Shown here: positions 9,743 through 29,801 of the stretch, piece by piece
How positions within the stretch are numbered: the stretch's first letter is position 1
Layout of the letters: each line of letters begins with the position of its first letter
DNA from: Myxococcota bacterium
GTDB taxonomy: Bacteria; Myxococcota; XYA12-FULL-58-9; JABJBS01
Reading direction: 5' to 3'
DNA length: 64,000 nt
Assembly (NCBI GenBank): GCA_036339465.1
Contig: JAYZAY010000064.1
Coordinates: 21,664 to 85,663 of the forward strand
Notes under the pieces: model-generated
The model's database searches: none
Told to the model about the DNA's origin: nothing
Seen by the model: only the letters and a program-made list of their open reading frames with translations
Translations under genes and position numbers: made by a program

Positions 9743-12700
9743 ATGGCAAAAAACGTTCTTGTTCTTAATGATGCCGACAACTCACTCGGTGAACTGATTC
9801 AGGCGCTGCAAAAGGCGGGCTATACAGCCTATTCTTCGGACAATGCGGACGCTTGCATTGATCTCTTCGATGAAATTAAGCCCAAAGCACTCTATATGAG
9901 CCTCTTAACCATTGGAGTACTCGATTCATTACAAGTCATTCGCATGGATCCCGACGGTGCGAATATCACAATTGCCTTTCTAGGAACCGGCAAAGAAGGC
10001 ATTAAGAATGACAAAGCAGCCAAAGCCCGTGGTGGCGATGCATTCTACAAATTCCCCCCCGACATCAGTTCAATCCTAGGAGATACCCGAAAATGGATCG
10101 GTGCTGGAGAAAAAGACGCGCCCCTACCCACTCTATCTGGTGGTGAACCACCACTCGAAGAAGCACCTCCCCCAACAGAAGAAGCCGTAGAACCACCCCC
10201 TGAAGAAACCGGAGCAGAAGAGACCCTAGCAGAAGCTGCCGACCAGCTTCTTGAGGAAATCACCGAAGAGCTGCCCCCCGCCCCCGAGCCAGAGGACTCC
10301 ACGGTTGCCAAAGCAACGGCCGAGTCAGCGCAAGAAGACGAAATTGTCCCGCTCGCAGAAAAGATCCCCAAGTTAGAAGAGACACCCTCCGAAAAAAAAC
10401 CTGGTGCTGAAGCTCCTTCGACAACAGATTCCTCGGCGACAGAAGACGCCGCAACAGTTTCACCAGCAACAGAAGACGCCGCACCGGACTCGCCAGTAAC
10501 AGAAGACGCCGCACCAGACTCGACAGTAACAAAAGCCGCCGCACCGGACTCGACAGCAATAGATTCGCCAGCAACAGAAGACGCCGCACCAGACTCGACA
10601 GAAACAGATTCGACAGCAATAGATTCGCCAGCAATAGAAGACGCCGCACCAGAAACTAGCACAGAAAGCCCAGAGTCAACGTCTGCTACCGAAACGCCTC
10701 CAAGAGAGAGCGGCACTGCATCAACTGAAGGCACGCCCACAACAGAACCGAGCGCCCCCACCGAAACAGCGCCCAGCCCTAAAGCGGAAGCCCAAATCCA
10801 AGAGCTAAAAGAAAGACTTGAGAAGGTTCAAAACGAACTGGGCGTTTTCAAACAGCTTGCAGAGGTCGCAGAACAAGACTTAACCTCTCAAAAAGAGCAA
10901 GTCGAAAAACTTATGGAGGACGTTTCAACTCTAGAATCCGACAAAGCCTCCTTAGAAGAAAAACGAAAAGAAGAAGAAACCCTAAGGCAAGTGAGCCATG
11001 AAGCCCTCGAAGAGTCCAAGAAAGCATCAATCGCAATCGCCGAACAATTAAATGATGAAACAAAACGACGTGAAGGACTCGAAAAAGAGCTCGAGAAATC
11101 AAATCAGGATATAGGAAAGCTGCGTTCGGAAATCTCCAACCTCCAGCAACATCAATCCCAACTAGAACATAGTCAGGCAAACACATCGGATTCCTTGAAT
11201 AAACTAAGAAATTCGCTCGAAGAAGAGCAAGCTAGAGCCCAAAAATCCCAAAAAGATGCCGTGGATACAATTCACTTCCTCAAAGAAGAACGGGAGAAAC
11301 TAACCCGAGAACTTGAAGACCTTCATCGCGACCTTAATTCAAAAAATGACAGGTCGCGCCTCAGAGAACAACAATACTCGCTGGAAAGAGAAAAAATCAT
11401 CACGGATATCCGTAAGCAAACCGAGGACAATATCCGAAATGAATTGGTACAACAGGCCCGGTACCGATCACTGTATAAAGAACTCCATCCAGAATGGGAT
11501 GGCGCCCCCCCGGATGTCATTCTCAGTGACTGGAGACAGGTAAAAACTGATATTTCTAGTCACAGACATTACGCCAATCCCGCTACCTCCAGTATGACCC
11601 CTCTTCACGGGGTCCCCCCTGTCCCTGGGCCATCACTCCCAGGACAACCGGAACGACACCCCAGGCCGGGTGACGAACTGACAGGCACTCAACTTAAAGC
11701 CCCCGTACCCAGCAACGGCCATCTAGATGGCCCCAACGATATTGCATTGCTCTTCACCAAGTTTTGGTGGGAACAAATAACAGGTCGCATTGATTTCTTG
11801 CGCGGCTCGGAACAAAAAGTAATCTACCTCCAAAGCGGTAAACCTATCGATGCTTACTCAAATCAGCCCGGTGATTCCCTAGCTCATTACTTAATGCGTC
11901 GAGGCAAACTTTCAAGAAATCAATATTTACAAGCCCAACCAATCCCGCCACGAGGCACCCGAACCCAAGCGGCCAGTCTAGCCGAAATGGGCCTACTCAA
12001 GCCCGAAGAACTGGTTGCATGCGTGTCTGATCACCTACGGGAAATTGTTTGGTCACTTTTCAGCTGGGAAAGTGGTGAATTCACTTATTATTTCGAAAAC
12101 CCAGATGGCTCGGAACTTAAGACAATTCCGGAAGATCCGCGAACCTTAATCCTCGAAGGTATTCGGAGAAAATATGAGTATCCAAGACAAACTGCGGTAA
12201 TCGGCCCATCAAGTACGGTGATGAAGTGGGCATCGGGCCAACCCGGAACGGTACCGTGGCTACCCAGTCAATTTCAAGATGCCCGGATTTTAAAACGCTT
12301 TGACGGCAAGCACACACTCTCGGACATAGTACTGGAAACCGGAATGCCCAGCGATATGATTTATCCGCTGGCAATCACGCTCTACACCCTTGGCACCCTC
12401 GAACTCAGAATCCGCGGTACAGAAACATCTCAAGTCACCATGGACCCGAAAATTCAGTCTATGGAGTTCTCTCGTATCCAGAATAAGCTAGAGGAAATAC
12501 GACAAGCCGATTATTTCACCATTTTAGGTTTAACCCCCAGAGCAACCCCATTTGAAATTGACGCAGCATTTCGTCAAGTAATGAATGACTTCTCCCCCAC
12601 CGCCTTTACGCCCCAAACCAGCGAAAAAGAACAGGGCAGCATGGCTGAAATTAGCCGAGGTATTCACGAAGCCTATGAAGTCCTAAAAAATGACCGCCTA

Positions 12701-12751
12701 CGGATGGCCTATGCCCGTAACCTCCCGGCCTCACAACCCTCCCGCCATTAA
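9743..12751 (+). CDS. Multidomain protein: receiver-like N-terminus, acidic repeat linker, coiled coil, DUF4388-like domain, DnaJ-like C-terminus
   Basis: Receiver-like start (VLVLND...LQKAGY); Glu/Lys/Gln heptads ~aa 350-570; ITGRIDF...LFSWESGEF...LILEGIRR (DUF4388-like); DYFTILGL...AYEVL...R (J-like). Confidence 0.75.
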   Translation: MAKNVLVLNDADNSLGELIQALQKAGYTAYSSDNADACIDLFDEIKPKALYMSLLTIGVLDSLQVIRMDPDGANITIAFLGTGKEGIKNDKAAKARGGDAFYKFPPDISSILGDTRKWIGAGEKDAPLPTLSGGEPPLEEAPPPTEEAVEPPPEETGAEETLAEAADQLLEEITEELPPAPEPEDSTVAKATAESAQEDEIVPLAEKIPKLEETPSEKKPGAEAPSTTDSSATEDAATVSPATEDAAPDSPVTEDAAPDSTVTKAAAPDSTAIDSPATEDAAPDSTETDSTAIDSPAIEDAAPETSTESPESTSATETPPRESGTASTEGTPTTEPSAPTETAPSPKAEAQIQELKERLEKVQNELGVFKQLAEVAEQDLTSQKEQVEKLMEDVSTLESDKASLEEKRKEEETLRQVSHEALEESKKASIAIAEQLNDETKRREGLEKELEKSNQDIGKLRSEISNLQQHQSQLEHSQANTSDSLNKLRNSLEEEQARAQKSQKDAVDTIHFLKEEREKLTRELEDLHRDLNSKNDRSRLREQQYSLEREKIITDIRKQTEDNIRNELVQQARYRSLYKELHPEWDGAPPDVILSDWRQVKTDISSHRHYANPATSSMTPLHGVPPVPGPSLPGQPERHPRPGDELTGTQLKAPVPSNGHLDGPNDIALLFTKFWWEQITGRIDFLRGSEQKVIYLQSGKPIDAYSNQPGDSLAHYLMRRGKLSRNQYLQAQPIPPRGTRTQAASLAEMGLLKPEELVACVSDHLREIVWSLFSWESGEFTYYFENPDGSELKTIPEDPRTLILEGIRRKYEYPRQTAVIGPSSTVMKWASGQPGTVPWLPSQFQDARILKRFDGKHTLSDIVLETGMPSDMIYPLAITLYTLGTLELRIRGTETSQVTMDPKIQSMEFSRIQNKLEEIRQADYFTILGLTPRATPFEIDAAFRQVMNDFSPTAFTPQTSEKEQGSMAEISRGIHEAYEVLKNDRLRMAYARNLPASQPSRH
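10438..10652 (+). repeat. Degenerate coding repeats (TEDAAPDS-type) in the acidic linker
   Basis: Recurring agaagacgccgcacc(g/a)gactcg units. Confidence 0.85.
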
Positions 12752-14547: not shown

Positions 14548-14877
14548 ATGAGTGACTCTGATTTAAAAACATTTAAAATTGGTGATACCCATCAACCGAC
14601 GGTTGCTGCCTCTGCTTCCCATCGGGCATCACAAGCCGCAAAAGGGAAGCCAACCGTGGGCTTCCCTAGACTCGAAAAGCTATTGGAAACGGAAACGGCC
14701 GAAACCGTCGACACAAAAATGAACGCAATCTTAACCAATTTGGGCAATTTAGAATCCCAAGCCGACAGCCCCAAAGAAAAAGCGTGCGCTAAAAGAGCGA
14801 CAGCAGCAGTATCTCAAGCCCATGAAATGCTTATATTTCTTTACGAAACCAAAAGCCTGGTGACACCCGGTGGCTGA
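14548..14877 (+). CDS. Small helical protein; candidate YscE/PscE-like needle co-chaperone
   Basis: Two predicted helices (RLEKLLETE...LTNL; KRATAAVSQAHEMLIFL) resembling YscE as I recall it; first gene of the T3SS cluster, directly before the needle-like gene. Confidence 0.45.
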   Translation: MSDSDLKTFKIGDTHQPTVAASASHRASQAAKGKPTVGFPRLEKLLETETAETVDTKMNAILTNLGNLESQADSPKEKACAKRATAAVSQAHEMLIFLYETKSLVTPGG

Positions 14878-14989
14878 AAAAAGTCAAAGCCCCTGTATTT
14901 TTTAACCGAAAGCCTTCGGGCTTGCTAATGTCACTACGAGCGACGAAAATTCAACAAAGCTCAAAGAACTGAAACCACGGAGTTTTGCA

Positions 14990-15469
14990 ATGACAAACAT
15001 TAAGAACAATTCAATAGGCAACCAAGTAGACGTCAACAAAAGCCGTGCTCGACAAACACAGAATGCATCAAAGAGCTTTGCTTCAGCAGTAGCCAATACA
15101 ACTGCGGGGGTAGCACGCTCTGTGGGTGCCGTGGTACCTGGAGGCTCTATCTTAACTGCTGCAGCTAGTTCCATTCAAAACTCTGTCGGTTCACCTAACG
15201 CACGAAATGTAAGCTTGGCTGGAACAACTACAACATCCTCAACCAATGACACATTTTCCGCAGTCAACGAGCTCGCTGCAAGCGGCGACTCTTCTGCCAC
15301 AATGTTTAACGCTACCAAAGAGCTACAAGAACTCAACCAGCAATTTAACCTAGAATATTTGAATCTCCAGCAAGAAATGCAGGGAGAAAACCGAAAATTC
15401 AGTGCTATTTCTAACGTCATGAAAACCAAGCATGACACTGCCAAGGGTATGATTCAGAACGTACGATAA
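14990..15469 (+). CDS. Candidate T3SS needle/filament subunit (SctF-like) with a long Ser/Ala/Thr-rich N-terminus
   Basis: C-terminus YLNLQQEMQ...SAISNVMKTKHDTAKGMIQNVR matches the needle-protein terminal pattern (SNxxKxxxDxxxxIIQNxR); followed by a strong terminator. Confidence 0.55.
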   Translation: MTNIKNNSIGNQVDVNKSRARQTQNASKSFASAVANTTAGVARSVGAVVPGGSILTAAASSIQNSVGSPNARNVSLAGTTTTSSTNDTFSAVNELAASGDSSATMFNATKELQELNQQFNLEYLNLQQEMQGENRKFSAISNVMKTKHDTAKGMIQNVR

Positions 15470-15495
15470 TGCCAAACAGTGTACGTCGCTCACTC

Positions 15496-15539
15496 CAAAC
15501 GCCGCAGGTCGCTCATGCCACCTGCGGCGTTTGTGTTTT
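15496..15539 (+). terminator. Rho-independent terminator after the needle-like gene
   Basis: Perfect 14-bp stem caaacgccgcaggt / acctgcggcgtttg, 10-nt loop, followed by tgtttt. Confidence 0.85.
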
Positions 15540-15619
15540 AACGGTACCTGTTTTAAAATTCTCCTGAGACCGCTAACGCATCGACCAGTGAACTGGCCCC
15601 GACGTAAGGACTAATTTAA

Positions 15620-16042
15620 ATGACAGATACGATATCGGATATAATTCAAGGAATAGTTCCCATCGAGCAAAAAGACCTAAGTCTACTTCTGGAGATAGGT
15701 TATTTCTACCTGGAGTTACAGAAGTTTAAAGAAGCGGAGGAAATTTTTAATGGAGTCGCAGCTTTGATCCCTCACAGCGAAATCCCGCACATAGCCTTGG
15801 GACATCTTTATTTTTCCCAAGGTCACTTCAACCCCGCACTCAAAGCCAATAAAGCAGCCGTTCTGCTCAATACAGAGTCCGCGCCGGCCCACGCAGCTGT
15901 TGGAGAAGTCCTCTTCTTCCTAAAAAAACCGGACGACGCAGTGACCGCGCTCAATAAAGCAATCCAATGTTCACCAGAAAGCCCTGCCGCAGAATTCGCT
16001 CAAGCGTTGCTTCACGCGAATGAAGTCGGCGTATTTGGTTAA
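15620..16042 (+). CDS. Three-TPR protein; candidate YscG-like T3SS chaperone
   Basis: TPR patterns (GYFYLELQKFKEAEEIF, LGHLYFSQG, VGEVLFFLKKPDDA); located directly after the needle-like gene. Confidence 0.65.
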   Translation: MTDTISDIIQGIVPIEQKDLSLLLEIGYFYLELQKFKEAEEIFNGVAALIPHSEIPHIALGHLYFSQGHFNPALKANKAAVLLNTESAPAHAAVGEVLFFLKKPDDAVTALNKAIQCSPESPAAEFAQALLHANEVGVFG

Positions 16043-16062: not shown

Positions 16063-16536
16063 ATGACAAAGGTTGGGGGCGGACCCAAGCCGCCGGTTCA
16101 AGTACCCATTCATGAACAAACGGGTAAAGCAGAGGAGCAAAAAGAGACAGCTAAAGGAGACGCTAAGGGGGCCCAAGTTCAGCGAGACCGATTCGAGGCA
16201 TCTCGCTCTCCCCTAGCAAATCGCCTCCAAGCTCTCCAAGCACAACGGGGGACGGCCAAGCTACAATTCAGTAACGCTGAAATGGCCGAGTTGGTGAAAA
16301 CTTTCGGCGCGATCCTTAAACAGAACCCACAAGCAGACCGAAAAAAGAGAGCAAAATTGTTCGCGGAAGCATTGCTCAAGAAAAAGAAGAAATTTAAGAA
16401 ATTCTTCAGTTCTGCTGCAGAACAAGATCTCGAAAACCTCTTTGATGCCATAGCCGAGCAACTAGAGAGTTCACCTGTCTTTGCGCAGTTGGTTGACGAC
16501 GTATCCGAAGAGTCCATTAAATTCGCAGGGAGTTGA
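16063..16536 (+). CDS. Hypothetical protein in the T3SS cluster (disordered N-terminus, helical C-terminus)
   Basis: aaggag RBS; co-oriented; its stop lies 4 nt before the sigma-factor start. Confidence 0.7.
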   Translation: MTKVGGGPKPPVQVPIHEQTGKAEEQKETAKGDAKGAQVQRDRFEASRSPLANRLQALQAQRGTAKLQFSNAEMAELVKTFGAILKQNPQADRKKRAKLFAEALLKKKKKFKKFFSSAAEQDLENLFDAIAEQLESSPVFAQLVDDVSEESIKFAGS

Positions 16537-16540
16537 TATC

Positions 16541-17293
16541 ATGAGTGGTTCACCCAGCTCCAATGCTCCAAGTAAAACAACCCAAGGCAAAGGGGCCAAA
16601 AAGAACATGGATTTCACCAATTCAAGGGCTGTGGTAGAGCAATACACTCCCTATGTTCGGTCAATCGCCACCAAAGCAAGCAGAAATCTTCCACCCGACA
16701 TCGAACTTGATGACTTGGTCGGATATGGAATGGTCGGACTTCTCGAAGCAGCCCAGCGATTCGATCCAGAAGCGGGTGCCAATTTCATGACATTTGCGTT
16801 CTACAGAATCAGGGGGGCCGTGTATGATGGCCTTCGTAGCATGGGTTGGATGAGCCGCACAGAATACGCCAAGGCCAGATTCGAAGAACGAGCCAACGAA
16901 TATTTGGCCGCACTTGCCTTTGCCGAGGAAACAGGGGCTCAGGCTCCCGAAAATCCATTTGAAATTGCAGTGGAAGATTTGGCGGCGGCTGTTGAGGGTC
17001 TTGCTGCGGTATACCTTACCGCCATCGACGGAACGGAAGGACTCCAACTCGAAGATGATAAGAATCCCAAACCAGATGAGAAACTTGGACTTGAGCAAGC
17101 TCGATCTCTGGTTAGAAAGACAATTTCTAAGCTTGGTGGCCAAGAACGAACCCTAATGGAACTCTACTATTACAGTGAAATGAGTCTGCAAGAAGTCGGT
17201 GAAAAACTCGGACTCTCTAAAAGCTGGACAAGTCGGTTGCATAAACGAGTTATCGAAAAACTAAGACGGATATTGGATGACGAATTAGGCTAA
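16541..17293 (+). CDS. fliA: FliA/WhiG-family (sigma-28-like) RNA polymerase sigma factor
   Basis: Region 2 DDLVGYGMVGLLEAAQRFDP and YRIRGAVYDGLR; region 4 LYYYSEMSLQEVGEKLGLSKSWTSRLH. Confidence 0.88.
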   Translation: MSGSPSSNAPSKTTQGKGAKKNMDFTNSRAVVEQYTPYVRSIATKASRNLPPDIELDDLVGYGMVGLLEAAQRFDPEAGANFMTFAFYRIRGAVYDGLRSMGWMSRTEYAKARFEERANEYLAALAFAEETGAQAPENPFEIAVEDLAAAVEGLAAVYLTAIDGTEGLQLEDDKNPKPDEKLGLEQARSLVRKTISKLGGQERTLMELYYYSEMSLQEVGEKLGLSKSWTSRLHKRVIEKLRRILDDELG

Positions 17294-17419: not shown

Positions 17420-17917
17420 ATGGACCCCGTCGGTGGTGGAATAGGCAAAGCAGCTGCGGCGCTTATGAAAGAAATGCAGCAGGTACAACAACAAGCCGAG
17501 CAAATGCAGGAAGCTCAACAAACACAGCAAGTTGACAGTGCACAATTTCAGCAAGCCATGCAAGATCAACAGGGCCCAGAGAACGTAAATAAGACCAACG
17601 CGGTACAACCCACTCCCCAAGGCTCAAGTATTCTCTCTCAAGTACACGCTTCAGGGGCCAGTCCCTCCCAAGCAATTGGGCAAACCGAAAGAGTCGAAAA
17701 GACTCAAGTTGCTCAAATGCTTGAAGGTTTAGCAGATGGGCAGCAAGAGATGAATAACATCATGGAAAAAGCTCTATCTGGCGATAAACTATCAAGCCAA
17801 GAACTCCTCGCCATGCAAGCTAAGATTTACCGATTTACCCAAGAAATGGAGATCACATCTAAAGTTGTCGAAAAGAGTACCAGTGGCCTCAAGCAAACCA
17901 TGAACACTCAGGTTTAA
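17420..17917 (+). CDS. sctI: T3SS inner-rod protein, YscI/HrpB-like
   Basis: C-terminus LSSQELLAMQ..IYRF..EMEITSKVVEKSTSGLKQTMNTQ; immediately upstream of sctJ; ggagg RBS. Confidence 0.7.
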   Translation: MDPVGGGIGKAAAALMKEMQQVQQQAEQMQEAQQTQQVDSAQFQQAMQDQQGPENVNKTNAVQPTPQGSSILSQVHASGASPSQAIGQTERVEKTQVAQMLEGLADGQQEMNNIMEKALSGDKLSSQELLAMQAKIYRFTQEMEITSKVVEKSTSGLKQTMNTQV

Positions 17918-18041: not shown

Positions 18042-18947
18042 ATGGGACTAAAGATAATGCGACCAAAGCGACTTAGCCAAAAGATCAAGAATCGGAATCA
18101 TTACTTATCAAGACTCACCCTGCTCCTGGGCGCCATGACATTCTCCACTGCGTGTGCGCCAGAAACCATTATTCATGACATCGGTGAACGAGAAGCAAAT
18201 ACGATTCTTGAGCTCCTAGCCGACCACGATATTCAAGCAAATAAACTAATGAAGAGCGATGGCCGAACAACCAAATTTGACGTCCTAGTCAATTCAGATA
18301 AAGCTATGAGCTCTATTAGACTGCTCAATCAATACGAATTACCAAGACGTGCTGACAAAGGCTACGCTGACGTCTTTGGGGAAGGTGGCCTCATCCCTAC
18401 GTCATCAGAAGAAAAAGCCAAAGAACTGGCCGCGCTCGAAGGTGAAATTCAAAAGCAACTCAAATTGGTGGATGGTATCCTCGATACCGAAGTCAATCTG
18501 GTCATCCCTGAAAACAATCCACTGCGTAACAACGAAGAGCAACAACCTACCCCCACCGCAAGTTTGACCATCCGATACCTACCGGGTAAAGGCGGAAGTA
18601 AACCCATCACGGAACAACAAGTTCAGGTGCTTGTATCTGCGGCTGTCGAAAATCTAAGTGCGGACAAAGTCTTTCCGCTCATGACCCCTGTCACCATCGG
18701 CTACAAAACAGAAGGACTAAGGGATGATCGCGATTCAGTAAAAGGCTCATGGATAGGGCGACTCGATAAAAAGACAGTGAACATTTTAACCATCCTAATC
18801 ACCGTATTATTCGTCGTACTCGCAAGTCTACTTGTCGTTTCCCAATTACGACTAAATAACGTCCGCGGTCGCTTGCTCCGACTCCAAAACGAAATCGCCA
18901 ATGCACGGAAAAGACAGTCCGGGGACAGCCTGCCCCCAGCCAGCTGA
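18042..18947 (+). CDS. sctJ: T3SS inner-membrane ring lipoprotein
   Basis: Lipobox-like FSTAC, EREANTI, GGLIPTSSEEKA, GILDTEVNL, VSAAVENL, C-terminal TM helix; short YscJ type rather than FliF; exact start uncertain. Confidence 0.9.
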   Translation: MGLKIMRPKRLSQKIKNRNHYLSRLTLLLGAMTFSTACAPETIIHDIGEREANTILELLADHDIQANKLMKSDGRTTKFDVLVNSDKAMSSIRLLNQYELPRRADKGYADVFGEGGLIPTSSEEKAKELAALEGEIQKQLKLVDGILDTEVNLVIPENNPLRNNEEQQPTPTASLTIRYLPGKGGSKPITEQQVQVLVSAAVENLSADKVFPLMTPVTIGYKTEGLRDDRDSVKGSWIGRLDKKTVNILTILITVLFVVLASLLVVSQLRLNNVRGRLLRLQNEIANARKRQSGDSLPPAS

Positions 18948-18970: not shown

Positions 18971-20014
18971 GTGCACCCGTTTTTCCATCCACTAACTCCC
19001 TATGAAACCATGCAACTCCTGACCTCTTTGGCTGTTGCTGGTCCCGAGGCTGTAGAACTTTTACGTTTTATCCCCGAGGAACAAAGAGAACGAATCAACG
19101 AAAAAGCAACGTCACTGCTCAAACTTGAAGGTGAAAAACGGATCCCGTTTGTCGTCTCGCAGCTCAAAGAACTCTTAAGTGGAGACAATATCGGCTTCGA
19201 CAAAATCGAGCCAAGCTGGATTTTGGATGAATTACTGGAAGAAGAACCTATTTCTATCGGAATTCTCCTTATAACCCTGCCACCAAACACCACCAAAATC
19301 TGTATCAAGATGCTCCCAGATACAATTCGTGAACAACTTCCACCAAGATCTGCCGTCATCGAAACCCCGCCCCTGGTTCAAAAAGCAGCACTTCGACAAT
19401 TCGAATCGCGCTTTACCCCAATGCCTTGTTTTGGCGCTTTGAGAGAGTTTCAGTTCCAAGACCTCCTCCGATTAGAAAGTTCCGATTGGCATCAACTTTT
19501 AAACGTTATTGGTAAAGTCGAGGTCGGTCAGGCATTCGTGTCAGTAGGTAAAATGGCTTTGGTTGATTTCTGCCGACAGCTTTCAGCCACAGACGCAGAA
19601 AATCTGCTCGCAACGGTCAAACGACACCCAGAAATGACCCCTGAAGAAATCAAAACCGGACAAAGATTTCTCTCCCGAATTGCTGGCTCCTTTAAGGCAA
19701 TGGATGAACTCTTTTCGTGTGCGAGTTTGTGGCGTCTTGCCAAAGCCACCTATGGAGAACCGAAACGATTCACCCAACAAATAGCCCTGCGAATACCGAG
19801 AAAGTGGGGAATCCAATACCTAGACTATCTCGAGAAAATACCAGAAATGGATGACCTAAACCCCCAAGATTTTTTAAACTATCAGGATTCAATCCTCATT
19901 GAGCTCATTCATCTAATCCATAACCAAGCCATCAATTTTCAAATGGGAAAAGCAAATATTGTGATGAATACGCCCGATCGCTACAAGAATGCCAGTACTG
20001 CGAATGACAATTAA
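18971..20014 (+). CDS. FliG-like / SctK-position sorting-platform adaptor
   Basis: Lies between sctJ and sctL; segments resembling FliG N, M (EEPISIGILL vs EHPQTIALIL) and C (FQFQDLLRL vs FxFEDLxxL). Confidence 0.6.
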   Translation: MHPFFHPLTPYETMQLLTSLAVAGPEAVELLRFIPEEQRERINEKATSLLKLEGEKRIPFVVSQLKELLSGDNIGFDKIEPSWILDELLEEEPISIGILLITLPPNTTKICIKMLPDTIREQLPPRSAVIETPPLVQKAALRQFESRFTPMPCFGALREFQFQDLLRLESSDWHQLLNVIGKVEVGQAFVSVGKMALVDFCRQLSATDAENLLATVKRHPEMTPEEIKTGQRFLSRIAGSFKAMDELFSCASLWRLAKATYGEPKRFTQQIALRIPRKWGIQYLDYLEKIPEMDDLNPQDFLNYQDSILIELIHLIHNQAINFQMGKANIVMNTPDRYKNASTANDN

Positions 20015-20059: not shown

Positions 20060-20722
20060 ATGGGAAAAGTAATTAAAAAAGGAATCGGAGACGACACAGG
20101 GTTTCAGGACCTCGTTTCCACCGATGAACCAACACGGCGAGCACCAATCATCGAGCGCGCTACAGTCGAAGCAAAAGATGAAGCTTCCGAAATTATAACG
20201 AAAGCCAAAAGTGAAGCCGAACAAATCATTCAAGCGGCAGAAGAAAAAGCAAAACACCTTGAGGCAGAAGCCCATGAACGCGGTTTTTCTGAAGGCAAAG
20301 AAGAAGGGGCATCCCAGTTACTCGAAACCGTAACCAAAGCCAGTAAGAGGATCCAGCAGACCGAAGACGCTCTTTCCAAAAACATTAAGGATCTGGCGAT
20401 TGGCATAGCCAAAAAGATCTTGGGTCAAGAGCTACAATCAAATCCTGATGCTGTGGTGGCACTTGTTAAACAAGCCCTCACCGACAAGGCGAGACAACGT
20501 AAAGAAATCAGCTTACGAATAAATCCAGAGGATTTGGAACACATCCGATCCAGTAGAAGCGAACTTCTTGAAGTATTAAGCCGTTGCCGCGAAATCTCAA
20601 TTAGGGAGGATCCAGACGTAGCGCGGTTTGGAGTCATTATAGAAACAGAAGCGGGTACCATTGATGCCCAATTAGAAACTCAGCTAGAGGCAATTCAAAA
20701 TGTTCTCAGAGCGATGCCCTAA
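20060..20722 (+). CDS. sctL: T3SS stator protein FliH/SctL
   Basis: AxxxA and GxxxG repeats (ERGFSEGKEEG), LRINPEDL, GVIIETEAGTIDA. Confidence 0.92.
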   Translation: MGKVIKKGIGDDTGFQDLVSTDEPTRRAPIIERATVEAKDEASEIITKAKSEAEQIIQAAEEKAKHLEAEAHERGFSEGKEEGASQLLETVTKASKRIQQTEDALSKNIKDLAIGIAKKILGQELQSNPDAVVALVKQALTDKARQRKEISLRINPEDLEHIRSSRSELLEVLSRCREISIREDPDVARFGVIIETEAGTIDAQLETQLEAIQNVLRAMP

Positions 20723-20737
20723 AGCCGAGAACAAAAA

Positions 20738-22078
20738 ATGAGTGACGGAGCACCTATCATCGACATTAATCAATATCTCCAAGCGATCGAACAAGCCGAA
20801 ACGGTTTCTGTTCGGGGCCGAGTTCTAGAGGTTACTGGACTGGTTATTAAGGCCCTGATCCCCGGAGTCCGAATTGGTGAAATGTGTTACGTCGATACGG
20901 GAATCGGCAATAGAATCGTCTGTGAAGTCGTCGGATTTCAAGACGAAAATGTGATGCTCATGCCCCTTGGGGAAGCACACGGTATTGGCCCAGACAGCGA
21001 AGTTTTAGCTACAGGAAGACCTTTCTCAGTTCGATGTGGTTGGGGCCTCCTAGGACGCGTTCTAGATGGCTTAGGACGACCTATTGATGGTGGCCCTGCC
21101 CTAGATGACCTTCCCGATCTCGTGGATTGGCCGGTGGAACGTGAAGCCCCAGACCCCATGAAACGAATGCGAATTACCGAGAGTATCGCCATGGGAGTTA
21201 GAGCCATCGACGGACTTTTAACCGTCGGTCTAGGCCAAAGAGTTGGGCTTTTTGCCGGTTCCGGGGTTGGCAAATCGACTCTCATGGGCCAGATCGCCAG
21301 AAATACTGAAGCTGAAGTTGTTGTCGTCTGTCTCATTGGTGAGCGGGGTCGTGAAGTAAGAGACTTTATAGAAGAATCCCTAGGCGATGAGGGTCTCCGA
21401 AAGGCGGTTCTAATTGTGGCGACCTCAAATACCCCCTCCTTGGTTCGCTTAAAGAGCGCTTTTATTTCCACCGCAATTGCCGAATGGTTTAGGGATCAGG
21501 GAAAGAAAGTTCTCTTTATGATGGACAGCTCAACCCGATTTGCACGTGCTCAACGCGAAATAGGTCTAGCCATAGGAGAGCCACCCGCCCGGCAAGGCTA
21601 TCCACCGAGCGTATTTTTTCAGATCCCTAGGCTCATGGAACGCACCGGTAACAATGAGACGGGTTCAATCACGGCCCTCTATACCATTTTGGTTCAAGGC
21701 GGAGATATGGAGGAACCTATCGCTGATGAAGTGCGCGGTATCCTAGACGGCCATATTATCCTTAATCGAGAGCTGGGCGCACGAAACCACTGGCCCGCTA
21801 TCGATATACTGCCTTCTCTTTCCAGAGTCATGAATGGAGTTGCCGGTGACCAACACAAAGCGGCGGCCGCCAAGTTACGAGAAGTACTAGCAACCTACGA
21901 AAAACAGCGGGATCTTATTCTCCTCGGAGCATACCAATACGGTACAGACACAAAAACAGATTATGCCATCGACAAAATCGAAGAAGTCGAAGCATTCCTT
22001 AGACAAGGCATGCTTGAATGCGACGATTTTGAAACAACCGTTCATAAGCTAGCCAGCATGTTCACAGACGTAATGTAG
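20738..22078 (+). CDS. sctN: T3SS export ATPase
   Basis: Walker A AGSGVGKS, GERGREVRDF, MDSSTRFARAQREIGL, GYPPS, ILDGHI. Confidence 0.96.
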   Translation: MSDGAPIIDINQYLQAIEQAETVSVRGRVLEVTGLVIKALIPGVRIGEMCYVDTGIGNRIVCEVVGFQDENVMLMPLGEAHGIGPDSEVLATGRPFSVRCGWGLLGRVLDGLGRPIDGGPALDDLPDLVDWPVEREAPDPMKRMRITESIAMGVRAIDGLLTVGLGQRVGLFAGSGVGKSTLMGQIARNTEAEVVVVCLIGERGREVRDFIEESLGDEGLRKAVLIVATSNTPSLVRLKSAFISTAIAEWFRDQGKKVLFMMDSSTRFARAQREIGLAIGEPPARQGYPPSVFFQIPRLMERTGNNETGSITALYTILVQGGDMEEPIADEVRGILDGHIILNRELGARNHWPAIDILPSLSRVMNGVAGDQHKAAAAKLREVLATYEKQRDLILLGAYQYGTDTKTDYAIDKIEEVEAFLRQGMLECDDFETTVHKLASMFTDVM

Positions 22079-22097
22079 GGTGAATTGAGTTAACTCC

Positions 22098-22592
22098 ATG
22101 GCCAAAAAACAAGAATATCGACTACAAGCGCTATTGGAAATCCGGAAACGCACCAAAGAGGACAAAGAACAAGAACTCGGTCAGTGCCTACAACGTTTGG
22201 AGACAGAAAAAGACAGCCTCGCCGGAATGAAGAAAAAATTAGAGGAAATGCTCCAAGACCGCGAACGAAGAGCAAAAGAATACGCCGATAAGCAGATGCG
22301 TGGCGAGATGAGCGCCCAAGCAATGACCGGAGCCCAATCTTACCTGAAAAGACTGAAAGAGAGTGAGGCCATCCAAGAAGAACTTATTCGAGATCAAGAA
22401 TCGGTGATTCGCCAAAGGCAAGATGAAGTTCAAGCAGCAAGAGAAATACTCTTAGAAGCAACCCAAGAACTAAAAAGCCTAGAGAAACACAAGGAAAAAT
22501 GGGAAAAAAAGGTCAAGAAAGAAAGACAAGCCAAGGAAGAACAAGAGCAAGAACAATTGGCACAGGCTATCTTTTTAAATAGGGAGAAATAA
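22098..22592 (+). CDS. sctO: T3SS stalk protein FliJ/SctO
   Basis: YRLQALLEIR N-terminus, all coiled coil, LEKHKEKW; directly after the ATPase. Confidence 0.85.
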   Translation: MAKKQEYRLQALLEIRKRTKEDKEQELGQCLQRLETEKDSLAGMKKKLEEMLQDRERRAKEYADKQMRGEMSAQAMTGAQSYLKRLKESEAIQEELIRDQESVIRQRQDEVQAAREILLEATQELKSLEKHKEKWEKKVKKERQAKEEQEQEQLAQAIFLNREK

Positions 22593-22655
22593 GGAGAAAT
22601 AAGGAGAAATAAGGAGAAATAAGGAGAAATAAGGAGAAATAAGGAGAAATAAGGA
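22581..22655 (+). repeat. 10-bp tandem repeat (aaggagaaat x6 plus two variant flanking units) spanning the sctO stop codon
   Basis: Read directly from the sequence. Confidence 0.95.
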
Positions 22656-22743
22656 AGAAAACAAATCTTCTAACCCGTGACCCCACCAAACGATAATGTG
22701 ATTAAGGCTGCCTGCCAAGGTAAGTACAAGGAGCCCACCTATT

Positions 22744-23586
22744 ATGAGCGACCGAGTCCAAGACCGCCGTGAAGCACAAATAACAGAGCAAAAACGCCTG
22801 GAAAAGGAAACATCGAAAAAAGACACACAGAAGTCTTCAGACCGAAAATTCTCACAGACAATGAAAAATGCTGCCTCCGAAACCACAACCAGATCAAACC
22901 AACCTCCAAGTACAAATCGCCCTAAAGGGGCAGCCAGCAAGAATAGCAGCGCGCAAGCGCTCGCAGCGCGCAAGGGAATTGCTTCGCAAAAATTCAGTGA
23001 CACTCTCTTTGGAACAGGAGAGAAAAACCTAAATTACTCCAAAGACTTAAGTAGCAACAGGGCCGAGCAAAAAGATCAAGAAAGACTCGAATTCAACGAT
23101 TCGAAGCAACAAGACTCCGTTAAGGAGCTGAACGAGAATGACCCACTGGCCGCAATAAGTGAGAGGCAAAGTCAATCAGGACAGGGGGGCAGTTTCGGGC
23201 AACCCCACGACGAGGGCCACCAACCTGAGACAGGTAGCCTAGACACAATCGATAACATAGGAAATCCGTCTGGCACCAAAAACGTGAAGCAAAGTCAGGG
23301 CGCTGGCCAAGCAGGTCAAATCCCACCCGCTATCCTTGAAAAACTCGTCAACCAAGTAATGGCCGGTGTGGATGAAATAGGCCAACCCCAATTCATCATC
23401 GAACTTAACCAAGAAACTTTGCAGGGTGCAAGAATCGAGATCAAACGGGCTGAAGACGGCATCGAGATAATATTCACGAGTCCTCACAAAGATATCCAAA
23501 ACCTGATTAAATCAAATGAAAATCGACTACATCGAGCATTTCACCACCGCGGGCTCAACCTTAATAAAGTCTCTGTGAGTAGCTAA
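22744..23586 (+). CDS. sctP: FliK/SctP-like length-control (ruler) protein
   Basis: Low-complexity polar N-terminus plus T3S4-like C-terminal domain (IELNQETLQGARIEI...IEIIF...LHRAF..RGL); located between sctO and sctQ. Confidence 0.7.
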   Translation: MSDRVQDRREAQITEQKRLEKETSKKDTQKSSDRKFSQTMKNAASETTTRSNQPPSTNRPKGAASKNSSAQALAARKGIASQKFSDTLFGTGEKNLNYSKDLSSNRAEQKDQERLEFNDSKQQDSVKELNENDPLAAISERQSQSGQGGSFGQPHDEGHQPETGSLDTIDNIGNPSGTKNVKQSQGAGQAGQIPPAILEKLVNQVMAGVDEIGQPQFIIELNQETLQGARIEIKRAEDGIEIIFTSPHKDIQNLIKSNENRLHRAFHHRGLNLNKVSVSS

Positions 23587-23726: not shown

Positions 23727-24986
23727 ATGGATTCGGTTAGAGCCTACCAATTCCATAATCTCCCCAAATACAATCGCCTTGAAGCGGGATTACTCGAAAC
23801 ATCTAGCGTGTTTCTTTCTAATAATCTTTTTGGACCAAGCCTCCTCCAAGCAATCCAAAGCAAGCTGGGTGAACTTGTCCGAACCTCCGTCCAACTTACA
23901 AACTCCCCTCCAACCCTACTTAAAGGCACCGAAGTCAGCCAGTTACTACCGGAACAAGGCTGCTTCATGCATTTACAGTGCAACCCTACGACTGAGCGGA
24001 TCCTAGTGGACATTGATGCCGGTTTGGCACTGGGGTGGATCGATGCAATGTTCGGTGCCCAAGTCAAAATAACCCCTGTACAACGACCACTTAACGAAAT
24101 CGAAAGAGGAGCATTCTCGTACATCATTCTAAATGTTCTAGCTGAAATTCATTCCGGTTGGTCGCACGGACCGCAATTGTCCCTGAGCTTAATGGAGACG
24201 TTCAGTTCTCGAAAAAACGCCATGACCACGTTAGACCTAAACGGAAACCATTTCCACCTAGGAATCACCATCGCTTTTGCCAAAAGCCTTGGCTATATTC
24301 GGCTATTTGTGCCCACAAGCTTGATGTCGGAACTTGCAACTTGGGCCTTACTGGATCAGGTCTCTCATGATTCACTCAGCTTTCGAAGAAAACGAGCTGC
24401 GATGCTTCATGATCTAGATTGTAAAGCGCGCTGTGAAATTGCTCGGATTGGCCTAAGTATTGAGGAGCTAAAAAACTTGGAACGTGGGGATATTATTATC
24501 CCCGAAGACCATGGCATTAGTCTTGGTCCTAACGGACCATCCGGAGACCTGCAAATTAGACTGGGGCGAGGTCAAAACGGCTACCTCCAGACCCAATTAA
24601 TTCCAGATTCCGGACAATTAAAATGTGCCATTCAATCGATCATTATACATGAACAACCCAATGAGGTTCCCATGGACGAAGACCAAATATTAAACGAAAC
24701 AAACGGTGAAATGGTGGAAAACCCTGCCCACAACGACAATCTAGAGCAAACCGAGGGACTTCTTAATGATATCCAATCTCCCGTAGTCGTTGAGCTAGGC
24801 CGACTCAATTTGAATGCGGGTCAGGTGATTCGCCTCAAGGAAGGACAAATTCTTCGCCTCCCTCGAGCCGCCACTGATCCGGTCGATCTCGTCGTCAATG
24901 GTCGCGTCTTCGCCCGGGGGCAACTTGTGGAAGTCGAGGGAGAGCTGGGTGTTCGAATCCTTCAGCTCGCTGGCTCTCAATCCTAA
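23727..24986 (+). CDS. sctQ: T3SS cytoplasmic ring protein SctQ (FliM/FliN-like, two SPOA domains)
   Basis: LSIEELKNLERGDII and VVVELGR...LKEGQIL...VNGRVFARGQLVEVEGELGVRI. Confidence 0.9.
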   Translation: MDSVRAYQFHNLPKYNRLEAGLLETSSVFLSNNLFGPSLLQAIQSKLGELVRTSVQLTNSPPTLLKGTEVSQLLPEQGCFMHLQCNPTTERILVDIDAGLALGWIDAMFGAQVKITPVQRPLNEIERGAFSYIILNVLAEIHSGWSHGPQLSLSLMETFSSRKNAMTTLDLNGNHFHLGITIAFAKSLGYIRLFVPTSLMSELATWALLDQVSHDSLSFRRKRAAMLHDLDCKARCEIARIGLSIEELKNLERGDIIIPEDHGISLGPNGPSGDLQIRLGRGQNGYLQTQLIPDSGQLKCAIQSIIIHEQPNEVPMDEDQILNETNGEMVENPAHNDNLEQTEGLLNDIQSPVVVELGRLNLNAGQVIRLKEGQILRLPRAATDPVDLVVNGRVFARGQLVEVEGELGVRILQLAGSQS

Positions 24987-25004
24987 ATACCCCAGGAACC
25001 ATTC

Positions 25005-25601
25005 ATGAAAACATTGGTGCTTGCCCTAGGGCTCATCATGGGAACGCTGGCAGGGCCTGCTTCCTCTACTGAAGCAGTGAAGTCTCCTAAAGTCCTCTCT
25101 AAGGGCGAAAAGGCCACATCACCAAATATTGCCCCTAAGGCACCAAGTGGAAAACCAGACCAGTCACCTGCTCCAGCACCGAGCCCACCCCCAAGTTCTT
25201 ACGACATATCCAAAGAAAATGCCGGACAGGTCTCTAAAGCCAATGAAGAAACTGATAATGATTTTGGTACCGCTCTTTTGAAGATGATTATTTCCCTTGG
25301 GGCGGTCCTGGCTTTGCTCATCATCATCGGCAGGGTTTTTCGGGGGAAATTAAAGTACTTTGGCTTCCCCGGCCAAACAAACGACATGAAATTGTTGACT
25401 CGCTTACCACTGGATAGCAAACACGTCCTTTTCGTGGTTGAAGTGGGTTCCAAGAACAAGTTACTTCTTGGCGGCGGTAACGGAAGCCTTTCTTTATTGA
25501 GAGAGTTCTCTTCAGAAGAAACCGACAGGTTGGCTTCCTCAGAGCCCGTTCAGGCAAACATCGAAACGGGATCACTACATCCTCGTGTAAAGGAAGCATA
25601 G
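25005..25601 (+). CDS. fliO: FliO-like export-gate assembly chaperone
   Basis: N-terminal signal and Pro-rich segment, TM helix LKMIISLGAVLALLIII, FliO motif MKLLTRLPLDSKHVLFVVEVG..LLLG...LSLL; directly before sctR. Confidence 0.75.
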   Translation: MKTLVLALGLIMGTLAGPASSTEAVKSPKVLSKGEKATSPNIAPKAPSGKPDQSPAPAPSPPPSSYDISKENAGQVSKANEETDNDFGTALLKMIISLGAVLALLIIIGRVFRGKLKYFGFPGQTNDMKLLTRLPLDSKHVLFVVEVGSKNKLLLGGGNGSLSLLREFSSEETDRLASSEPVQANIETGSLHPRVKEA

Positions 25602-25607
25602 GCTATT

Positions 25608-26402
25608 ATGAAACGACTCTGGAACACGATGAACTGGGCAATAGCCTTGACAATGCTGCACTGGATGGACGCTGCACCCGCCTTGGCTGTGAAAAAGGGG
25701 GCTGACGCCCTCGGCTCAAATAGCCTTGCGAATCGACCCTTAATTCTTCTAACCGCCCTAGCCGGCCTCGCTCTCGTACCATTTGTTCTAATAATGGTCA
25801 CTTCGTTCGTAAAAATTGCGGTGGTGCTCTCCATCGTGAGACAGGCCGTGGGAACTCAGCAAATCCCTCCAACGCAAGTCATTACCGGGTTGGGAATCGT
25901 TCTTACCGTCTACATTATGATGCCAGTGGGACTGGAAGTCTATCACAACGCCCAGGAGAGAATGCTTCAGGAATCGCCCAAGGGCGAAAGTATGAAAATG
26001 AGCGACCTTACGGTGCAACAAGCTCTAGACCTCGCCAAGGAGGCAGAAGGCCCAATGAAAGGTTTTCTGGTAAAACATGCCCATTTGAAAGATCGGGACA
26101 TGTTCTACAAACTCGCTTGGAGAATGAGAAAACCGCGAGATAGAGCAACGCTTTCCGACCAAGATTGGGCCATCATTATTCCTGCCTTCGTCATCAGTGA
26201 ACTCAAGGAAGCCTTTCAAATTGGGTTCATTCTATTCGTCCCGTTCTTGGTGGTCGACATGGTCGTCGCCAACATACTTATGGCCCTGGGTATGCAGATG
26301 CTCTCGCCAACAACGATATCCCTCCCATTCAAAATCCTCTTATTCGTAATGGTCGATGGATGGTACCTAATAACCAAGGGCCTTGTGATAGGATATCAGT
26401 GA
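25608..26402 (+). CDS. sctR: Export apparatus FliP/SctR
   Basis: TSFVKIAVVLSIVRQAVGTQQIPP, PAFVISELKEAFQIGF, LGMQMLSPTTISLPFK, VDGW. Confidence 0.96.
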   Translation: MKRLWNTMNWAIALTMLHWMDAAPALAVKKGADALGSNSLANRPLILLTALAGLALVPFVLIMVTSFVKIAVVLSIVRQAVGTQQIPPTQVITGLGIVLTVYIMMPVGLEVYHNAQERMLQESPKGESMKMSDLTVQQALDLAKEAEGPMKGFLVKHAHLKDRDMFYKLAWRMRKPRDRATLSDQDWAIIIPAFVISELKEAFQIGFILFVPFLVVDMVVANILMALGMQMLSPTTISLPFKILLFVMVDGWYLITKGLVIGYQ

Positions 26403-26409
26403 GGAACAT

Positions 26410-26688
26410 ATGGACCAGGAAGTCATAGAGTTTATCATTCGAATTACCAACGAAGCCCTATTGATGATTATCGTGGTTTGCGGACCGCCCATTCTTCTTA
26501 GTATGATCGTGGGGCTCTTAATTTCACTCTTTCAAGCGGTTACCCAACTTCAAGAACAGACCCTCACCTTCGTCCCTAAGATGATCGTTATCTTCGGGGT
26601 TCTCGCTGCTCTGGGACCTTGGCTTGGGGGAACACTTTTGACCTTTGCGCAAAAGTGCTTCTCCGAATTCCCAAAATACTTATTTTGA
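26410..26688 (+). CDS. sctS: Export apparatus FliQ/SctS
   Basis: GLLISLFQAVTQLQEQTLTFVPK. Confidence 0.96.
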   Translation: MDQEVIEFIIRITNEALLMIIVVCGPPILLSMIVGLLISLFQAVTQLQEQTLTFVPKMIVIFGVLAALGPWLGGTLLTFAQKCFSEFPKYLF

Positions 26689-26704
26689 TACTACGACGAA
26701 GCGC

Positions 26705-27535
26705 ATGGAAGACTTTCTAATAAAAGCCAGAGAACTCCTAAGTTACACCACGGAGCTTATGACCTTCGCTTTGTTGATAGGTCGTACCATGCCAATGATC
26801 GTTCTAACCCCCTTTCTCGCTGGCAAGATCGCTCCCACCGAACTCAAGATGGGCTTGGGAATCTCCCTAAGCCTACTTATTTGGCCCGTGGCTACCGCAG
26901 GTATGACAGGGCAACTCGTTTACGCTCCGGGCCCCTTTCTCTTACTGATGCTGAAAGAAACCTTCATCGGTTTCGCCATAGGATTTGTCAATGCACACAT
27001 CTTTTATGCCATGGAAATGTCCGGTCGTATCATTGACACTGTACGGGGGGTTTCCATGTCCGAGGTCCAAGTTCCCCATTCTCAACAGCGTGCAACCCTA
27101 ACCGGGAGTCTCTACTATCAATTACTCTTAATCGTATTTTTTGCGGCCGGGGGTCACCATGTGTTTTTCAATGCATACTTTGATTCGTATTTAACAATTC
27201 CTATCAACGAAGGAATTGCCACCGGACTGGGCCTCACCGCACTCACCGACTTCATCGCCAAATTGACTGGGGATATACTTACCATCGCCGTCAGATTGGC
27301 AGCACCCATTATCGCAGCCACATTAATTACGGACATCGTTTTCGGGATTCTAAACCGCGTTGCCCCGCAACTTAACGCATATTTCATGTCTATGCCCGTA
27401 AAGGCTCTCGGGGGCGTGATCGTCATATTCATTGCATTCTCGGCTGTGCTTGCAAGCTTCAATGAGTTTACAATATGGGGCTCCGAAGCAATGAGAGATA
27501 TAATCGCATATTTCTCAAAAACCATAGGCATGTAA
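26705..27535 (+). CDS. sctT: Export apparatus FliR/SctT
   Basis: LKETFIG, GRIIDTVRG, LAAPI, GILNRVAPQLNAYFMSMPVK. Confidence 0.94.
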   Translation: MEDFLIKARELLSYTTELMTFALLIGRTMPMIVLTPFLAGKIAPTELKMGLGISLSLLIWPVATAGMTGQLVYAPGPFLLLMLKETFIGFAIGFVNAHIFYAMEMSGRIIDTVRGVSMSEVQVPHSQQRATLTGSLYYQLLLIVFFAAGGHHVFFNAYFDSYLTIPINEGIATGLGLTALTDFIAKLTGDILTIAVRLAAPIIAATLITDIVFGILNRVAPQLNAYFMSMPVKALGGVIVIFIAFSAVLASFNEFTIWGSEAMRDIIAYFSKTIGM

Positions 27536-28651
27536 ATGTCAGACGGCGGTACAGGCGAAAAAACGGAAGAGCCAACCCCGGAGAGGCTTAGAAAACTCCG
27601 AGAAGACGGGAATGTATCCAAAAGTCAGGACGTCACTTCGGCCGTTTCGTTCTTAGTGGTCTTTTGTGTTCTAGCGGGCTCTTTTGGTTTCATCGCTGAG
27701 GAAATCCGTGAGCTGATTGATATAGCATTGATTGGGTTTACCTCGCAGGAAGCCCCCGGAGTTCTTGCCAATCGACTCTTGATGCAGGGAATGATCACCC
27801 TTGGGAAATGCTGCGCCCCTGTGCTAGCCGCTGCATTTATCTTGGGTATTTCCATGAACTTGGCGCAGGTAGGCTTTCTCTTCACTCTGAAGCCCATCAC
27901 ACCAGACATCAAAAAAATTAACCCAATCCAGGGCTTCAAGAACTTAGTGAATATGAAGAAGCTCGTGGAACTCCTTAAAACAATTATAAAATTTACCGCA
28001 ATCAGTATCATTTCGTACTTCGCCCTGAATGACGCAATGCGTGACGTCATTTTAACTATCCGAAGTGACCTCACTATTGGTATGTTGGTTACCGGCGAAA
28101 TTATCTGGGACTTTTGTATCAGAATTGGCGCCGTATTCGTGGTAATTGCGTTGGCAGACGCACTTTACCAAAAAAAGAGGTATATTAAAGATAATAGGAT
28201 GTCGAAATATGACATCAAACAAGAATATAAACAGTCGGAAGGTGACCCCCAGCTTAAAGCCGAGAGGAAACAGCTGCACCGAGAAATGGCCAACGGCTCC
28301 GGTCAAAAGGGAGCTGTAAAAAAGGCGGACGTCGTCGTGAGAAACCCAGATCACATAGCTGTAGCCATCAAGTACAATAAAGAAACAGACGACGCTGCCC
28401 CAACCGTCGTCGCTAAGGGTGAGCGTATTTGGGCGGAGAAAATCCTCGAAGAAGCAAGGCACTACGGGGTTCCAATTGTTCGAAACGTGCCTTTGGCCCA
28501 AGCACTTAATAAAGTAGACGTCGGAAACGAAATCCCCGAAGAACTCTACGATGCGGTAGCTGAAGTGTTGAATTTTGTTTACACCCTTGCAGAAGAGCAA
28601 CAAAATAAGGGTAAAAAGAAACTCCCGAGAGGTAAGAGAAATGGCCAATAA
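27536..28651 (+). CDS. sctU: Export switch protein FlhB/SctU
   Basis: GEKTEEPT..RL...REDG, KINPIQG, EYKQSEGDP, NPDH cleavage-loop variant, PIVRNVPLAQAL. Confidence 0.95.
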   Translation: MSDGGTGEKTEEPTPERLRKLREDGNVSKSQDVTSAVSFLVVFCVLAGSFGFIAEEIRELIDIALIGFTSQEAPGVLANRLLMQGMITLGKCCAPVLAAAFILGISMNLAQVGFLFTLKPITPDIKKINPIQGFKNLVNMKKLVELLKTIIKFTAISIISYFALNDAMRDVILTIRSDLTIGMLVTGEIIWDFCIRIGAVFVVIALADALYQKKRYIKDNRMSKYDIKQEYKQSEGDPQLKAERKQLHREMANGSGQKGAVKKADVVVRNPDHIAVAIKYNKETDDAAPTVVAKGERIWAEKILEEARHYGVPIVRNVPLAQALNKVDVGNEIPEELYDAVAEVLNFVYTLAEEQQNKGKKKLPRGKRNGQ

Positions 28652-29108: not shown

Positions 29109-29164
29109 ACACCCAACACACTCCGCCCCACCTACAAACTCCCACTTTTCTGAAGACCAGATTT

Positions 29165-29668: not shown

Positions 29669-29801
29669 TAACCGATCGGCTCCCTATGCGATCGCTGAAA
29701 AAGTCCAATCAGCGTTGACATAACTACTTCTGAGTTGTTACTCCAATCGTTTAAACTCTCGTTTTTCCTGGCTTTTTAATTGCTACATCGGAGACGTAAG
29801 A

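Follow-up and report, generated by a model that had tools for sequence, protein, structure and literature searches.

A likely needle-type subunit between chaperone-like genes in a T3SS locus of a class published as needle-less

Do the Myxo T3SS lack a needle? In the accessible parts of the literature, they are described as having no secretin, SctF, tip or translocon, SctF having been lost, and an evolutionary scheme holds that without a needle they cannot inject (PMC3459982). For the MXAN_2434-2464 locus, too, SctF, tip and translocon are stated to be missing, at least in the accessible text of the two papers that treat it (PMC10433427, PMC12075869). According to the available sections of the second of these, T3SS* recruitment depends on Kil, and the tips of Kil (Tad) pili are proposed to replace the needle for prey lysis (PMC12075869). 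Two published positions, the needle-loss scheme (PMC3459982) and the pilus-tip model of predation (PMC12075869), depend on the absence of SctF, as far as the accessible portions of both papers go. An earlier note on one locus of this class, whose published description as needle-less these sources bear out, proposed that three of its genes encode a needle subunit and two chaperones in the order YscE-YscF-YscG. We found no paper naming a needle subunit here; annotations of the three ORFs may exist in the primary T3SS* paper (Cell Reports 2022) or in its supplements.

The window, i.e., the whole stretch of 64,000 nucleotides that was analysed, lies on contig C64 of a Myxococcota genome (G000; 4.17 Mb, 92.8% complete). 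The three ORFs exist as had been noted, all on the + strand: ORF 14548 (14548-14877, 109 aa), ORF 14990 (14990-15469, 159 aa, ending with the C-terminal residues quoted in the earlier note), and ORF 15620 (15620-16042, 140 aa). They start a co-oriented run of T3SS genes. Relatives keep the three together, which shows that the frames did not arise by chance. The run continues on the + strand with a conserved 157-aa protein of no family name (16063-16536), a FliA/WhiG-like sigma factor (16541-17293; TIGR02479 E=3.6e-47, below cut-off), a SctI-like inner rod or needle adapter (17420-17917; Pfam E=6e-4, NCBIfam E=4e-3), the inner-membrane ring SctJ (18042-18947; profile matches), and a protein placed in the SctK/FliG slot by position (18971-20014; FliG_C E=0.04). 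SctL, the ATPase SctN, SctO and a SctP/FliK-like ruler (E=7e-6) occupy 20060-23586; SctQ, a FliO-like protein, SctR, SctS, SctT and SctU follow at 23727-28651, all with profile matches except SctS (26410-26688), which is assigned by size and position. The last part (28641-31811) encodes a 155-aa ORF of no named family, an LcrH-like TPR chaperone (29165-29668; profile match below cut-off) and a 669-aa TPR protein. Rod and ruler thus share the locus with the three ORFs, as the note had said.

With its export apparatus, SctN/L/O/Q, SctI, SctJ, several LcrH-like chaperones and no T3SS secretin, this system resembles the Myxo NF-T3SS/T3SS* of Myxococcus xanthus. Set against the latter, its SctV is encoded on a separate contig (C59), away from the window locus, and SctD was not found by tblastn with two queries. 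A flagellar locus can be rejected, as the sole SctV passes the SctV cut-off and falls below the FlhA cut-off. The FliO-like gene (25005-25601) and the FliA-like sigma gene are normally flagellar; here they lie in a non-flagellar locus, in a genome with no second FlhA/SctV. The nearest named loci come mostly from Myxococcota MAGs and Anaeromyxobacter; a few stand in records titled Bdellovibrionales or Deltaproteobacteria.

The family of ORF 14990 (hereafter F) has no name in Pfam or NCBIfam. Its profile retrieves 2,364 clusters at 50% identity and is matched in 255 of the 301 sampled genomes of the phylum (a tally that counts G000 itself and G485). All 30 F-positive genomes tested, hand-picked across families from the 255, carry a gene of the SctV/FlhA family, which exceeds the SctV cut-off in 22 of them. 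Such a gene is absent from 12 of the 20 F-negative genomes sampled (out of 46), and four of the 20 have a clear SctV. No F was detected in these four, whose SctV is over the cut-off, and in f15 genomes with SctV it is absent from the four stretches around SctJ. T3SS genes are scattered in these small-genome f15 relatives (L171-L174), and SctJ sits directly after rpsB-tsf-like genes. Genomes of the same order as the window's also contain a second-tier F paralogue (L131, L132, L133, L136; matched by the family profile with E between 1e-10 and 1e-13) with weak HrpA pilin matches.

An alignment of 103 full-length members divides the protein into three parts. Residues 15-62 are moderately conserved (0.53), residues 63-100 form a variable insert of 19 to 74 residues (68% G/S/A/T, conservation 0.32), and residues 101-159 are the best conserved (0.67) and of near-fixed length. 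Because the insert lies between two conserved segments and varies in length, the extra length of ORF 14990 is internal. The earlier note had placed a Ser/Ala/Thr-rich extension at the N-terminus; this model is rejected, since the Ser/Ala/Gly/Thr-rich part falls mostly within residues ~63-100. AF2 predicts a confident helix of 58 residues (101-158), a short one (88-97), and a low-confidence one (26-44). No helical hairpin, the fold that the note had expected of an SctF-like protein, is predicted in this model (pTM 0.26; pLDDT <50 for residues 16-84), and Foldseek returns 0 matches for it at E<=10. VIA-align finds generic long helices (best Z 6.0) and no needle among the 50 matches listed, a single helix being an uninformative query; in the Atlas structure search TM is never above 0.44. 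We found no hydrophobic segment in the protein.

Is the conserved C-terminal helix that of a needle? The C-terminus of ORF 14990 matches the needle profile PF09392 below threshold (E=0.026), over model positions 37-71 of 71. Curated cut-offs of PF09392/TIGR02105 are not reached, ORF 14990 scoring 15.1 bits vs 29.4 and its orthologues 13.6-15.5 bits. For one orthologue (L120), PF09392 (E=0.02) is the only Pfam match and TIGR02105 (E=0.02) the only NCBIfam match; for another (L122), PF09392 is the top match (E=0.08). Over 51 C-termini of the family, PF09392 matches just 2, HrpF 6, HrpA_pilin 13, and an unrelated helical family 24; no member matches EspA or SseB. Searches with PF09392 of the window's genome (at E<=0.001) and across the 301 genomes gave no match, the controls being silent too in both cases. 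Neither ORF 14990 nor the family profiles found anything significant among PDB sequences. The profile-profile comparison that the note had called for came out weak, hhalign of the F family against SctF alignments giving probabilities of 0.6-10% (pairwise E of 0.003-0.1); the N-terminal conserved segment alone aligns with the SctF N-helix at E=0.07.

Against 32 annotated T3SS proteins, the F-family profile puts the SctF of Desulfovibrio first, gapless and with C-termini in register, at 10.5 bits. In the most telling control, a blind ranking of the genome's 3,187 C-termini with an HMM of Desulfovibrio SctF (built from seven sequences), SctI comes first (11.5 bits), ORF 14990 second (11.3 bits) and the next at 8.2 bits; ORF 14990 is ninth with the Ysc HMM and fifth with both combined. 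The same was done on 871 C-termini from eight stretches of three complete genomes of family f16: the top 13 are three SctI, five F orthologues and five copies of a 72-aa ORF, followed by a drop to 2.7 bits. SctF and SctI are alike in structure, according to the accessible text of PMC10333785. In the ESM Atlas, the top set for ORF 14990 is a Myxococcota cluster (0.92, 194/256 features), possibly its own, with PF09392 on 11% of members; the next named sets, useful as leads, are needle, HrpA and HrpE-like pilins (0.80-0.82). In needles, a PxxP turn leads directly into the C-terminal helix, and we found it in 88 of 120 SctF sequences. Of the 103 F members, 101 have no such turn within their last 75 residues; 68 of the 103 have a PxxPG before the insert, of which ORF 14990 lacks the first Pro. 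In conclusion, no single test of needle-likeness is significant for ORF 14990. Its conserved C-terminal helix extends to the C-terminus and is in register with known needles, with weak scores and a consistent register.

Gene order provides the complementary information. Among the best 80 of 145 loci, F is found as E-F-G in 27, as E-F in 5 (2 of them at a contig end), as F-G in 3, next to SctI in 19, and without a T3SS neighbour in 24, 2 being unscored; an E-like gene therefore precedes F in 32 of these 80. Five complete f16 genomes have two copies of F each, one in a long and one in a short locus. The three long loci opened all have E-F-G, followed by X-sigma-I-J in the two that are fully visible, and F comes immediately before SctI-SctJ in both of the short loci opened. 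By gene content, these would correspond to MXAN_2434-2464 (long) and to the short locus of M. xanthus, each with an F orthologue. E-F-G also precedes SctI/SctJ in Aeromonas and Desulfovibrio. ORF 14990 hence occupies the slot of SctF, between E-like and TPR genes or adjoining SctI. A terminator-like hairpin follows it on the + strand (15496-15533), with a perfect 14-bp stem, a 10-nt loop, a T-rich tail and a fold energy of -30.4 kcal/mol. Of 28 loci, 15 have a stem of at least 7 bp with a T tail behind F, and none has one behind E or G. A scan for sigma-70 promoters gave chance level (4 found vs 4.0 expected).

The closest parallel is the system of Desulfovibrio (Nitratidesulfovibrio vulgaris pDsulf-L2-1), where a small helical ORF, SctF, a TPR protein and an unannotated ORF precede SctJ and, further on, N-O-P-Q-R. 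The C-terminus of the F family has its best match in this SctF, which, unlike ORF 14990, has 83 aa, passes the Pfam cut-off and lacks the insert; the Desulfovibrio system has SctC and SctD. The YscE-F-G, PscE-F-G, AscE-F-G and CdsE-F-G modules share with the window the gene order, the combination of a large TPR protein with a small two-helix one, and the conservation of the client in its C-terminal half. They differ in that our flanking ORFs have no significant match to YscE or YscG and in that F is twice as long. As described in the accessible text of PMC13466201, class III chaperones consist of a large TPR and a small two-helix subunit, with a client conserved in its C-terminal half.

Three TPRs are matched in ORF 15620, at residues ~22-54, 55-88 and 89-120. 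The earlier note was right on its length and three TPRs; as for the likeness to YscG, the family scores alike on CdsG, SctY and LcrH models. CdsG and SctY match all 26 members of its family and LcrH 25 of 26, with best E values of 1.6e-8, 3e-10 and 1.2e-10, respectively, ORF 15620 itself being far below the three cut-offs. LcrH-like and SctY proteins give it better scores than the G-slot protein of Desulfovibrio does, and PDB searches with its family profile find generic TPRs. The Desulfovibrio G, for its part, scores as CdsG/SctY rather than YscG, i.e., like ORF 15620, so this ambiguity is compatible with a YscG role without proving it. Judged by its profile matches, ORF 15620 is likely a T3SS chaperone, CdsG, SctY and LcrH fitting alike. 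It has the three TPRs, the capping helix and the position after the SctF slot that characterise large class III chaperones, and on balance it is probably a needle chaperone.

ORF 14548 is placed in the slot of the SctE-type (YscE-like) chaperone by position and shape. Its model has helices at residues 42-48, 51-71 and 75-105, the two long ones with pLDDT of ~87-91, and consists of a two-helix hairpin behind a disordered N-terminus that carries a short conserved motif, which is extra with respect to YscE, PscE, AscE and CdsE. The two-helix core claimed in the earlier note is thus recovered in the model, but the alignment by eye with YscE found no counterpart in profile searches: Pfam YscE (PF08988) matches none of 23 family members, NCBIfam YscE (TIGR02501) matches neither ORF 14548 nor two f16 orthologues, and in the 32-protein panel the E-slot protein of Desulfovibrio is hit at E=0.27. 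That protein, used as control, itself reaches E=0.089 and 0.003 against the YscE profiles (Pfam and NCBIfam, respectively). ORF 14548 has no usable feature match in the ESM Atlas, its family profile finds nothing significant in the PDB, and the predicted antiparallel two-helix shape is generic. The chances that it is the partner of ORF 15620 seem to us evenly balanced. At the level of curated profiles, none of the three ORFs would formally be placed in SctF, YscE or YscG.

The C-terminal helix is also found outside the SctF slot. Two large proteins of the same genome, at C1:68052-69611 and C3:24776-26551 (L128, L129), end in a helix related to that of ORF 14990. Such proteins, relatives (L134-L155) included, vary in their N-terminal bodies, whereas their filament-like C-terminal helix is highly conserved. 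Relatives have up to 14 matches per genome, and the C-terminus of one relative hits PF09392 at E=1.7e-5. By eye, they look like possible interchangeable tip or filament proteins. The long loci of f16 contain needle-sized ORFs of 72-74 aa in 2-5 identical copies (L124:13747-15793; L126:11916-12623; L121:13252-13476 and 15667-15891), which are weakly similar to the F family and to SctF (PF09392 E=0.023 in L126) and could be the true needle of these loci. No 72-aa relative was found among the ORFs of at least 50 aa in the window's genome. Finally, stand-alone proteins with an F-type helix at their end occur in records with titles such as Acidobacteriota, Aminicenantes, Armatimonadetes and Syntrophaceae; the helix hence is not exclusive to T3SS. 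By our own heuristic, a signal-peptide-like start is present in 18 of the 24 loci without T3SS neighbours vs 1 of 35 members of the long-locus type. FliP/SctR was not seen in four of five genomes with T3SS-free helix proteins, the completeness of these genomes being not known. Some of these proteins start with what we take, by eye, to be Nif11/double-glycine-like leaders. Signal-peptide-like or leader-like starts combined with the helix outside T3SS were noted in L025, L027, L033, L039, L044, L055, L061, L063, L075, L077-L080, P0019, P0046-P0051, P0138 and P0139, one being in a record titled Nitrososphaerota archaeon. This T3SS-free use fits a self-assembling module and also a secreted active peptide.

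Other parts of the apparatus were searched in the same genome. No T3SS secretin SctC was found, PilQ on contig C67 being the only secretin seen in this 92.8% complete genome. Contig C33 contains a translocon-type operon (C33:90749-97674, - strand; L089:2750-9675) encoding a 347-aa ORF, a double LcrH/SycD, a 391-aa SseC-like protein, and proteins of 281 and 790 aa. The LcrH/SycD passes the cut-off. Three hydrophobic windows in the 391-aa SseC/YopB-like protein and one in the YopD-like 281-aa protein reproduce the 3+1 arrangement of AopB/AopD; the 281-aa protein is a candidate SctB-like protein by its position and single hydrophobic segment. Pfam SseC matches 10 of 12 members of the SseC-like family (best E=8.5e-11). 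The gene is present in 14 of 22 genomes of the same order, with an adjoining LcrH in 12 of these 14 loci and a homologue of the 281-aa protein in 7. The SseC-like translocon profile finds nothing in the five genomes searched from three other families. Unlike the published Myxo systems, the window's genome therefore has both an F candidate and a translocon-type operon. Elsewhere in this genome (C30:56448-59982; L087), an LcrH/SycD chaperone over the cut-off is convergent with two unannotated ORFs of 227 and 767 aa, which are possible T3SS substrates.

Taken together, the weak in-register profile matches, the blind ranking, the language-model features, the slot and the downstream hairpin indicate that ORF 14990 behaves like a member of the SctF clan, and we regard it as likely to be a divergent needle subunit of the SctF type. 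The central claim of the earlier note is supported in part by these elements, the low-confidence model showing no hairpin fold. That ORF 14990 has some axial structural role, be it in a needle, in a tip filament or pilin, or in a short rod, is very probable. It might belong with the tip filaments of the EspA/SseB/Bsp22 kind or with HrpA-like pilins, a smaller protein forming the needle proper. We hold this unlikely, although the family shares with these proteins the size range (150-200 aa), the conserved ends around a variable centre and the weak HrpA matches, and although the repeated 72-74-aa ORFs of the f16 long loci offer such a smaller protein. The window's genome lacks a 72-aa relative, the short loci examined have F directly before SctI-SctJ, F otherwise lies between the E-like and TPR genes, EspA and SseB matches are missing, and the large helix-ended proteins of the same genome suit the tip role.

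Another axial reading makes ORF 14990 an SctF/SctI-like protein confined to a short periplasmic rod, from which substrates would pass to the Tad/Kil or type IV pilus machinery. This is quite unlikely in our opinion: a SctP-like ruler is present in the locus, the hairpin suggests a high output of F, and 14 of 22 genomes of the order carry a translocon-type operon, which implies that a target membrane is contacted. It draws on the missing secretin, on the empty translocon profile in the other families, and on the dependence on Kil and the proposed pilus tips, as far as reported in the accessible text of PMC12075869; needles polymerise even without SctC, according to the available part of PMC10333785, a point that has been counted for the rod. 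The helix might also be an amphipathic secreted module of a general kind that acts on membranes or associates with itself, ORF 14990 being then a chaperoned substrate without structural role. Its presence behind signal-peptide-like or Nif11/double-glycine-like leaders outside T3SS loci agrees with this, as does the resemblance of the TPR neighbour to LcrH/SctY as much as to CdsG, and long amphipathic helices easily attract weak matches. We consider it improbable, since each T3SS locus, long or short, has one F in a fixed slot, the protein has no hydrophobic segment, and it ranks as SctI does against SctF profiles.

If ORF 14990 is a needle subunit, the TPR protein 15620 and the two-helix protein 14548 would hold its product soluble until export, after which it would polymerise, starting from the SctI adapter, to give a needle-like filament. 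The C-terminal helix would line the lumen of the filament and bind the groove of the TPR protein, residues ~26-50 may supply the N-terminal helix and the turn, and the Gly/Ser/Ala insert would face outward. The hairpin would raise the F transcript over those of the downstream genes, as needed for a subunit made in many copies. In systems of the window's order, the filament may end in a tip and translocon. A broader scenario, which we put forward tentatively and regard as less likely than not, is that the earliest-branching non-flagellar T3SS kept its needle, made of an SctF that bears an insert and has E/G chaperones to itself. In some lineages interchangeable tip proteins and a translocon would cap this filament, which would reach target cells with no dedicated secretin, and the helix would have been re-used on Sec- or leader-exported proteins of bacteria that lack a T3SS. 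If so, a needle would operate without a secretin of its own. As the candidate gene occurs in long as well as short loci of complete genomes of myxobacterial type, the question of the needle can be tested directly.

Two further features of the window concern repeats. Low-complexity peptide repeats at 10260-10650 lie within a 1002-aa DUF4388/DnaJ protein (9743-12751), and the ORF at 39153-39590 encodes a histone-like protein of Lys/Ala/Pro repeats (KKPAA) whose C-terminus forms a short tail resembling a helix-turn-helix.
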